A stretch of 12,765 nucleotides of DNA from a virus. Taxonomy: Duplodnaviria; Heunggongvirae; Uroviricota; Caudoviricetes. The first letter of the stretch is position 1, and every line of letters begins with the position of its first letter. The position numbers were made by a program, and so were the translations under genes. The stretch is taken from the IMG/VR virus record IMGVR_UViG_2721755658_000004; one strand, given 5' to 3'. The notes under the pieces were generated by a model, which saw only the letters and a list, made by a program, of their open reading frames with translations, had not been told where the DNA came from and made no database searches. Shown here piece by piece: positions 1,481-2,551 of the stretch.

Positions 1481-1525
1481 AGCACGTTCTTGCATATGAC
1501 GTGGCTACGGGTTTCGAGACCGACC
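1481..1525. repeat. Imperfect direct repeat A (about 45 bp), partner of 2502-2551; resembles the 3' end and 3' flank of the pin gene
   Basis: agcacg-ttcttgcata-tgacgtg-gctacgg-gtttc...ccgacc versus agcacg-atcttcttgcata-cgacgtg-ctacgg-tttc...ccgacc; hand alignment only (roughly 85-90% identity over the ~35-bp core, with one 3-nt indel). Confidence 0.5.
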
Positions 1526-1640
1526 CGATCATCAAACGAAACATAAAATTAGCTCACATTATGAGGAAAGGTATCTTTTTGCGCTATGTAAATTCAAAGG
1601 GTTAGCCTCATTTTCCCGATGGCTTTCTCAACACTACTGG

Positions 1641-1669
1641 TTGTGAGCCCTTGCAATGTTCATTAATAT
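1641..1669 (+). promoter_or_regulatory. Candidate sigma-70 promoter for the GIY-YIG gene (-35 TTGTGA, 17-bp spacer, -10 TAATAT)
   Basis: Hexamers at 1641-1646 and 1664-1669 with a 17-bp spacer, about 33 nt upstream of the ATG at 1702; sequence pattern only. Confidence 0.3.
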
Positions 1670-1701
1670 ACGTCTCACAAATAATTCACAGATATTGCAA
1701 A

Positions 1702-2475
1702 ATGGATATTACTGAGTTTCCTTCTGGAGTAATTGAACACCTTGGCTGGTATGTATACCGATTGATTGATCCTAGGGACGGAAGCACCTTCTATGTAGGG
1801 AAAGGCAAAGGTAACCGCGTATTTGCCCATATGCGCGGTGAAGTGGCAGCGGCTGATGATGACGAGTTACTGAGCAACAAGCTAAAGCAAATCAGAGAAA
1901 TAAGATTAGCGGGACTTGAAGTTATCCATGTCATCCATCGACATGGAATGACTGATGAAAAGACGGCGTACGAAGTTGAAGCAGCACTTATTGATGCCTA
2001 CCCTGGGTTAACGAATATCATGAATGGTGCTGGCAGCAATGAATTCGGCGCCGCGCATGTCAAAGAGTTGATAGCAACATATCAACCCGAAACCATAACA
2101 TTTCATCATAAAGCATTAATGATTTCCGTTAACAGAAGTGCAAAGGATTCAGAGCTTTATGATGCGGTTCGATTTAGCTGGCGCATTAATGTCTCTCGCG
2201 CCAGCCAAGCAGAAGTCATTCTTGCTACTGTAAGGGGGATCGTTCGAGGGGTTTTCATTGCTGATAAATGGCTCAAATCAACACGTGAAAATTTCCCTAC
2301 GATGAAATACTGGGACGAGGATCCGGACTTTGAGGCAACACAAAGTTCTCGCTATGGTTTTGAAGGTCGAGAAGCCCCACCTGAAATAGCAAATCTTTAT
2401 CTTGGAAAAAAAATACCAGATGAATTAAGAAAAAAAGGAGCTATGTCCCCGGTCCGTTACTCACCTAATTTTTGA
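1702..2475 (+). CDS. GIY-YIG nuclease-domain protein (N-terminal about 100 aa) fused to an uncharacterised C-terminal domain of about 150 aa; 257 aa from ATG 1702 (an in-frame TTG at 1651 would give 274 aa)
   Basis: Motifs in order: VYRL (GIY), YVGKGKG (YIG), GNRVF (catalytic Arg), [11 protein letters not shown] (Glu), LTNIMNG (Asn). No recognisable SD at either start. Lower-GC moron-like gene convergent with pin. Confidence 0.7.
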
Positions 2476-2501
2476 GTCTTTAAGTGATAAGCATAAACCG
2501 C

Positions 2502-2551
2502 AGCACGATCTTCTTGCATACGACGTGCTACGGTTTCATTTATCTCCGACC
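2502..2551. repeat. Imperfect direct repeat B (about 50 bp), partner of 1481-1525; overlaps the last codons and 3' flank of pin and contains a dyad AGCACG...CGTGCT
   Basis: See repeat A; 2536-2551 encodes the pin C-terminus (..PVGDK*). Confidence 0.5.

Follow-up and report, generated by a model that had tools for sequence, protein, structure and literature searches.

A pair of short, imperfect direct repeats was analysed in a 12,765-nt stretch of tailed-phage DNA (Caudoviricetes; IMG/VR record IMGVR_UViG_2721755658_000004), referred to here in its full length as the window. The two copies, A at 1478–1515 and B at 2495–2537 (plus strand), bracket a cassette of about 1 kb that carries a GIY-YIG restriction gene, CMoRE/PD-T4-3, and copy B adjoins the 3' end of pin, a serine DNA invertase gene. 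Copies A and B are likely to be two diverged alleles of one conserved, terminator-like hairpin of about 38 nt (H, with alleles H_A and H_B), joined by mosaic recombination around the CMoRE module. As an instance of phage mosaicism next to a known defence gene, the feature is clear but ordinary; it leaves existing knowledge of phage mosaicism and of CMoRE itself unchanged, and offers a concrete sequence-level example of defence-gene exchange between prophages.

The Repeated Hairpin

The repeats were compared by Smith-Waterman alignment of window 1401–1650 with 2421–2700, with 2000 shuffles as the null. The best local alignment paired 1478–1515 with 2499–2537 at a score of 43 (shuffled mean 17.3, standard deviation 2.3, maximum 30), with 34 matches, 2 mismatches and 3 gap events of 3, 1 and 1 nt, and the same pair was returned by a repeat search (repeats D1 and D8). 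The similarity is above chance, and the direct repeat of about 45 bp announced in the original prediction is real; its length is not, since the repeated part is the stem-loop H of about 38 nt only. Beyond H, the comparison of 1516–1545 with 2538–2567 scored 13 against 9.3 ± 1.9 for shuffled sequences, a value equalled by 5% of shuffles, and the outer 10–14 nt that had been counted as repeat are not homologous.

Copy A is made up of CGTAGCACG, a loop and CGTGGCTACG, followed by GGTTTC, and folds at −19.8 kcal/mol. It closes the 3' end of a conserved non-coding segment, called here the A-type element (1325–1515, plus strand). Copy B, made up of AAACCGCAGCACG, a 16-nt loop and CGTGCTACGGTTT, lies between the convergent CMoRE and pin genes, and its 13-bp stem begins 20 nt past the CMoRE stop codon; the inverted repeat (I4) has 13-nt arms, 92% complementary, with folding energies of −16.3 kcal/mol on the plus and −22.5 kcal/mol on the minus strand (z about −3.7). 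The dyad AGCACG-N16-CGTGCT, previously read in both copies, is exact in B, whereas A has CGTAGCACG-N13-CGTGGCTACG with a one-base bulge. The overlap of B with the last codons of pin was confirmed, the pin stop codon (TCA) lying at 2536–2538.

Two scans of viral contigs gave 215 H loci, from which 68 distinct hairpin variants were folded singly. A comparable stem-loop was found in most of them, with stem types altered on both arms (CGTAGC/GCTACG, CGCAGC/GCTGCG, CCGCAGTA/TACTGCGG and CGCGGTAC/GTACCGC); RNAalifold, applied to a MAFFT alignment of 88 variants, did not recover the hairpin, owing to loop indels. The stem is GC-rich and covaries, and the hairpin thereby appears to be under structural selection. 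Five or more T residues occur within 8 nt past the stem in 24 of the 68 variants, read on the plus strand of the window, and H would behave like an intrinsic terminator on that strand, antisense to pin, for transcripts running from the attachment-site (att) and integrase side toward pin.

The sequence of H also forms the 3'-terminal hairpin of CssrB (Rfam RF02799), a Shigella small RNA, on the opposite, pin-sense strand. The likeness is limited to the hairpin alone, with matches of 24.5 and 19.5 bits (range 19–25) against a gathering score of 76; positions recorded were window 2499–2558 and, in the Qin locus L006, 3068–3205, both on the minus strand. Membership of H_A or H_B in the CssrB family was rejected, both being below the gathering threshold and matching no part of the model but its hairpin. 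A literature search on CssrB and on the ydfK/ynaE/pinQ/pinR context found nothing useful.

Right Junction

The 3' end of CMoRE and the left hairpin arm AAACCGCAGCACG are constant among the loci compared, and the loop, right arm and neighbours joined to them are of three kinds. In the window and in locus L015 the next sequence is the loop and right arm characteristic of the hairpin beside pin; in loci L017 and L016 it is one of two other hairpin alleles, each with its own unrelated neighbours. One gene and one left arm with three right arms demonstrate, to judge from these alignments, that crossovers fall inside H. The allele with the ATC insertion, that of copy B, was carried by 37 hairpin-pattern hits in viral contigs, every one of them flanked by the GIY-YIG gene to the left and by pin to the right.

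In two viral contigs (L035 and L056) B-type and A-type hairpins stand 4171 nt apart, and not 1024 nt, so that the A-type element and the CMoRE cassette are separated by about 3 kb of additional DNA. Such a layout could be an intermediate toward the window-type junction.

Left Junction

The left junction of the cassette consists of TTTCGAGACCG (1508–1518, plus strand), the last 11 nt of a 62-nt repeat derived from serU, the gene for tRNA-Ser(CGA). The serU direct repeat on either side of the Q5 prophage ends in exactly these letters, and in both cases the phage arm ACCCGATCATC comes next. Copy A had been regarded as a diverged pin end, a view that does not hold, as TTTCGAGACCG|ACCCGATCATC is identical to the serU att repeat with its phage arm in Q5 and in enterotoxigenic Escherichia coli (ETEC) H10407. 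Homology to the window starts at 1501–1508 in ETEC H10407, in Q5 and in the O157:H7 strains hit by megablast, and to the left of that start H10407 and Q5 have the last 62 nt of tRNA-Ser(CGA). In Q5 the 62-nt repeat is present at both prophage ends (L017 2957–3018 and L018 35594–35655), and the far end carries a tyrosine integrase (L018 32195–33181) and the intact tRNA, so that both end repeats and an integrase mark a serU attachment site there. Since CMoRE adjoins this site in Q5, it is the terminal gene of a serU phage; the CMoRE module is found without copy A in serU-integrated prophages. Only 11 of the 62 nt are kept in the window, where the att site is thus vestigial. Taken together, the alignments demonstrate a serU att origin for the left cassette end. 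The fusion point in the window is a patch, CTAC..CGGTTT(T)C, shared by the 3' tail of H_A and the serU att repeat.

Among 42 left cassette ends examined in viral contigs, 16 were H_A, 2 another H allele, 16 a truncated tRNA (tRNA') and 7 a partial hairpin with restriction-modification (R-M) cargo, the remaining one being a contig edge. A tRNA gene in the window or at the junction was considered and rejected, as ARAGORN found none at either place; the relatives hold the 62-nt 3' fragment.

Two further observations concern serU. In H10407 a thrW-integrated prophage carries the serU 3' fragment internally (L002 5780–6016, compared with Q5 L017 2780–3018) and also keeps about 180 nt or more of the zinT-side serU flank seen in Q5; it looks as if imprecise excision from serU, or recombination with a prophage resident at serU, had taken place in an ancestor. 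In addition, the last pin codons and the base of H (window 2538–2560) read CCGGTC...GAAACCG, which resembles the serU anticodon stem-loop CCGGTCTCGAAAACCGG (L018 35640–35665) with a longer spacer. The resemblance may be due to chance or may have favoured the left-junction event.

Empty Alleles and Proposed Assembly of the Locus

Empty sites were sought with a chimeric query in which the A-type element is fused directly to the pin 3' end. This query was matched in one piece, at 80% coverage or more and mostly at 93–96% identity, in 402 E. coli genomes. The empty alleles of QDFD216 and strain 3359 belong to the same prophage family, with YmfQ and baseplate J, and have other cargo to the left of the element; in the alignment of empty alleles one A-type hairpin abuts pin, and the hairpin of QDFD216 differs from H_A by one mismatch and one extra G. 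Relative to this widespread arrangement, the window has about 1 kb of additional DNA and a second hairpin. The window-type junction was found in at least 165 complete E. coli genomes, so that the cassette is present or absent between the same flanks (402 empty versus at least 165 window-type), as in morons. The order seen in phage HK97, ...CCGCAGCACGTTCTTGCATACGACGTGGCTGCGGTTTCATTTATCTCCCGAAACTCC, is H with a relic of the pin end, GGAGATAAATGA: the hairpin comes first, then GGTTTCATTTATCTCC, then CGAAACTCC, that is, copy B with a relic of the last pin codons. This fusion of the hairpin to a pin-end relic is decisive for the ancestral layout.

According to the reading preferred here, the ancestral layout would have been [5' part][H][pin 3' end], in which the one H present directly adjoins the stop codon of pin. 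In the window a moron-type unit of 1 kb lies between H_A and pin, comprising the 11-nt serU att remnant, the phage arm with the upstream region, the CMoRE gene and its own H_B; two phage segments, each already provided with H, would have been joined. The right junction would be due to homologous or homeologous recombination inside H, and the left to a separate join of the H_A 3' tail to the anticodon-loop region of the serU att repeat, the repeat by which the CMoRE module is bounded in serU-integrated prophages. H_A would stop transcription entering from the left, and H_B would end CMoRE transcription before it runs antisense into pin. We infer this order of events from the sequence comparison. 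The original prediction of mosaic exchange at a conserved boundary beside the pin 3' end proved largely right, since homology between prophages breaks there and the cargo varies.

Several points weigh against this account. In some empty alleles the left arm is of the A type and the right arm of the B type, without the extra G (GTCGTAGCACGTTCTTGCATACGACGTGCTACGG), the pattern that a deletion between A and B would leave, and the direction of change cannot be fully fixed for that reason; such mixed-arm alleles may be secondary deletions between the repeats. Both alleles of the phage arm occur with both kinds of left junction, which implies a history of more than one exchange. The enzymology of the left junction is equally compatible with integrase action and with illegitimate recombination, given a microhomology of 7–11 nt. 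As regards the hairpin itself, the T-runs after H_A (GGGTTTCGAG; GGGTTTCG) and after H_B (GGTTTCATTTAT) are weak and a simple terminator scan found no terminator at either copy, and the terminator function of H_A and H_B is therefore unproven. Since CssrB ends in H on the opposite strand, H may act in the pin sense or on both strands, and transcripts may also end at it in the pin-sense direction.

The mixed-arm alleles bear directly on one alternative, which we hold to be unlikely: that the two-hairpin cassette state is the older one in this phage lineage and that homologous deletion between A and B then gave rise to the empty alleles. A deletion can be mediated by direct repeats of 38 nt, and the arms of GTCGTAGCACGTTCTTGCATACGACGTGCTACGG are as such a deletion would leave them. 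QDFD216-type empty alleles are, however, A-type on both arms, HK97 and lambda, which are distant and lack CMoRE, carry a single H by a pin relic, and a left cassette end derived from the serU att site implies secondary assembly.

It is also conceivable, and quite improbable in our estimate, that the left junction was made by a serU-specific tyrosine integrase acting at a secondary site in the 3' tail of H, so that A and B would be a by-product of aberrant site-specific recombination. Integrases that target tRNA genes usually exchange strands in the anticodon-loop region, where the break is located (CGG|TTTTCGA|GACCGG); the H tail shares CTAC..CGGTTTC with that region of serU, and both phage-arm alleles are found with both left-hand types. 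Nevertheless, the reciprocal product, in which the 3' part of tRNA-Ser would be joined to TTTCATTTATCTCC and the pin end, was not seen, the window-type prophages are integrated as single units at thrW or icd and have other integrases, and a microhomology this short fits illegitimate recombination just as well.

The original prediction had allowed for site-directed insertion of the cassette, with the repeat as its product. In this form the cassette would be an autonomous mobile unit, such as a free-standing homing endonuclease of the GIY-YIG type or a small cassette able to transpose, site-specific by pin, and A and B its target duplication. The presence of a GIY-YIG nuclease gene, the empty alleles at the same site and the direct orientation of repeats that bracket the unit would agree with it. 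The protein is, however, by its matches CMoRE/PD-T4-3, a restriction enzyme dependent on 5-hydroxymethylcytosine (5hmC) or glucosyl-hydroxymethylcytosine (ghmC), and not a homing enzyme; there are 2 mismatches and 3 gap events between the copies, against flanks that are at least 95% conserved (95–100% between strains); an att remnant forms the left end; serU-integrated prophages have the module but no copy A; H links the CMoRE gene to other neighbours as well; and the unit has neither terminal inverted repeats nor a recombinase or transposase. The constant company of the B allele, GIY-YIG gene and pin, speaks against insertion as well. This explanation is largely refuted and has only a very small probability. 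A target-site duplication as such was likewise rejected for repeats of 38 nt with 2 mismatches and 3 gaps, copy B being found elsewhere without copy A; the divergence of the H alleles, the crossovers inside H and the att-remnant left end all argue against it. That the likeness of A and B is due to chance or to low-complexity sequence, as the shortness of the repeat and the palindromic nature of both copies might suggest, is hardly credible and already refuted by a score never approached in the shuffles (43 against 30) and by the membership of both copies in a family of thousands.

With the mosaic origin of the two H alleles retained as the preferred reading, the element to which H_A belongs and the cargo enclosed by the hairpins can be considered.

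The Conserved Non-Coding Element

The A-type element is about 100–190 nt long, with a 5' part of some 70–150 nt ahead of H, and is kept in lambda, HK97 and Qin. A 116-nt query (window 1405–1520) matched 5382 of 5426 complete E. coli genomes, at a median of two places per genome and with little or no annotation in the rows examined, as well as 170 phage records, lambda included. In lambda the element lies between ea31 and ea47 (24162–24267 by BLAST, with similarity by eye to about 24350), in HK97 right after the annotated sib and before tfa (L010 3001–3099), and in Qin about 180–280 nt inside the ydfJ' end (L006 3001–3104), while Rac has the hairpin alone, about 190 nt inside the ttcC end. The e14 prophage of K-12 is without the element, homology to the window ending at the pin stop codon and mcrA following. 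The comparison of e14, Rac and Qin thus did not agree with a conserved boundary downstream of pin in these prophages: e14 lacks it, and in Rac and Qin, where pin has the opposite orientation, the element is found close to the prophage end and about 1 kb upstream of that gene. The element appears to sit at the junction of the tail-fibre/pin module and the att/int side in lambdoid and e14-like phages. In 111 unique copies from viral contigs, at least 20 unrelated classes of right flank were distinguished, their starts falling near the 3' end of H, and the left flanks ahead of the element fell into at least 10 classes.

Several identities were considered for the element. A coding origin was rejected, as reading frames are not conserved across the window, Qin and lambda, with 1-nt indels and stops; in HK629 a hypothetical coding sequence is placed over it. 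The Prokaryotic Genome Annotation Pipeline also annotates a partial "capsid protein" pseudogene of 27–29 codons over the element (L001 7018–7104, L004 5095–5181, L005 5087–5167 and L012 5088–5168; about window 1411–1497), which is probably spurious, since the frame is not conserved between phages. No Rfam family was matched by the element at its gathering score. Identity with sib (tI) was suggested by position and orientation in Qin and HK97 and rejected, because sib is present separately in lambda, 3.3 kb from the element, and is different in sequence. With lambda and HK97 sib, the element shares a hairpin terminator read in the int direction and a place just past attP, towards what will be the far end of the prophage, and in HK97 it directly follows sib; it differs in sequence and, in lambda, by the distance mentioned. 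We know of no RNase III role for the A-type element.

Cargo of the Cassette

The gene between the hairpins (1702–2475, plus strand) was assigned by PADLOC, the PDB and Pfam (PF22945). The PADLOC profile PDLC04031 was matched at E = 2.2e-140, residues 1–256 aligning to profile positions 1–255 of 256, and the PDB entries 9U75 (E = 1e-172) and 9U7U (E = 1.1e-150) were matched over 257 aa. All the tyrosines of the GIYxY-YIG motif, defined in PMC12923530, are present (Y17, Y19 and Y31). On these matches, the protein is a member of the PD-T4-3/CMoRE family, a characterised family of type IV restriction enzymes. CMoRE acts against DNA with 5hmC and glucosyl-hmC and protects against T-even phages, restriction of such phage DNA having been demonstrated for the orthologues of O157:H7 and avian pathogenic E. 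coli (APEC) O1 (PMC12923530). The match to the O157:H7 enzyme (9U75, E = 1e-172) suggests that the enzyme of the window would restrict 5hmC/ghmC DNA as well. The phage arm and the region upstream of the gene (1519–1701, plus strand; GC content 0.38) are collinear with the serU-type prophages of H10407 and Q5. A consensus scan of 1516–1701 found no promoter; the gene has been expressed from its native promoter by the authors of PMC12923530.

At least 80% of the block 1300–2700, CMoRE included, is carried by 606 complete E. coli genomes. Elsewhere the same slot holds McrA (K-12 e14), an ATP-dependent nuclease, a type II R-M system or a DUF262 protein, in accordance with the earlier statement that different prophages carry different cargo here, and the variety of nuclease and R-M types makes the slot a place for interchangeable defence cargo. 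The right end of K-12 e14 (pinE-mcrA-attR(icdC)) is comparable in its prophage family (YmfQ, tail-fibre inversion, pin), in its slot between pin and att, and in its cargo, McrA being a type IV modification-dependent nuclease against T-even-type DNA (PMC12923530). It differs in having neither H nor the A-type element, with window homology ending at the pin stop codon, and in that McrA belongs to the HNH enzymes and CMoRE to the GIY-YIG enzymes. A short conserved, terminator-like hairpin that supplies the homology for crossovers would allow CMoRE, McrA, R-M systems and other nucleases to share the slot by pin.

Comparison with Known Exchange Sites

Morons and the mosaic joints of lambdoid phages were reportedly described by Juhala et al. 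(2000) and by Hendrix et al. from comparisons of HK97 and HK022. The cassette resembles them as an accessory gene present or absent at one site among relatives, with a terminator-type hairpin as boundary and with homology breaking at gene or terminator boundaries. It differs in that a terminator-like hairpin stands on both sides, because the module brought its own copy, and in that the left boundary is an att-site remnant and not a promoter-proximal joint, no promoter having been located by the scan. Defence hotspots of the P2/P4 type in prophages and satellites are said to have been described by Rousset et al. in 2022. Here the likeness lies in a fixed position between conserved phage genes with interchangeable anti-phage systems; the phage family and the slot are different, and the boundary is a non-coding hairpin element instead of flanking core genes.

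A more speculative proposal, to which we give little credence, is that the A-type element does more than offer passive homology: it would be a functional phage non-coding RNA or 3'-end module and would serve at the pin/att end as a dedicated site for exchanging anti-phage cargo. Its conservation in very different phages is what would define such a site; if the proposal were true, the element would be the non-coding counterpart of the gene-flanked P2/P4 defence hotspots.

Anatomy of the Window

The window is built from a 4228-bp unit present twice in exact tandem (390–4619 = 4618–8847), which is why the H_A-cassette-H_B feature occurs twice, its second, identical copy lying at 5706–6765 (plus strand, offset +4228). 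Each unit is the truncated end of an e14-like prophage. The order within the unit is a flxA-like gene, a small ydfV-like open reading frame, the non-coding element, the GIY-YIG gene, pin, one pix site and tail-fibre pieces. The flxA-like gene (590–922, minus strand) was matched by Pfam PF14282 (FlxA, E = 1.2e-14) and is annotated as FlxA-like in the E. coli matches, and pin (2536–3090, minus strand; 184 aa) was matched by Resolvase (E = 1.5e-51) and HTH_7 and is annotated as pinE. The prophages that end in this block in E. coli relatives have YmfQ, baseplate J and a Mu-like tail, and their integration sites are thrW, icd and serU.

The remnant of the invertible tail-fibre segment (3117–4548; PF21882 and PF02413) contains a gp53-like C-terminal piece (3117–3509, plus strand) and two tfa genes (3531–3971, plus strand; 3943–4548, minus strand). 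A pattern search found one pix-like crossover site per unit, at 3145–3170 with its duplicate at 7373–7398; only one is left because insertion sequence IS1 truncates the invertible segment. Left without a partner crossover site, the Pin inversion switch in the window should be dead. H was also considered as a quasi-pix site for Pin and rejected for lack of a match in A or B: the 26-bp dyad TTYNNNNAAACC NN GGTTTNNNRAA, with up to 3 mismatches, was found at 3145–3170 and its duplicate only.

The left truncation of the prophage remnant is due to the 3' part of an IS1 copy (1–393, plus strand), which has a 100% inverted match to the inverted IS1 end beyond the second unit (8843–9236). The open reading frame at 1–378 ends in what we take, from its sequence, to be IS1 InsB, and IS1 is annotated at the equivalent places in E. 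coli records. The tandem junction at 4612–4624 reads ...ATACTGGGGTACCCAGAAAT...; the copies are joined by GGTACC, which resembles the initial and final few bases of two IS1 ends that face each other. The junction had no match in an exact search of one-genome-per-species contigs, and the whole 4228-bp unit had none at 100% identity among complete E. coli genomes; the duplication could be a real IS1-associated rearrangement or an assembly artefact. Finally, a 24-nt stretch just upstream of the CMoRE start (1652–1675) recurs, possibly by chance, at 88% identity past the right-hand IS1 (10024–10047).

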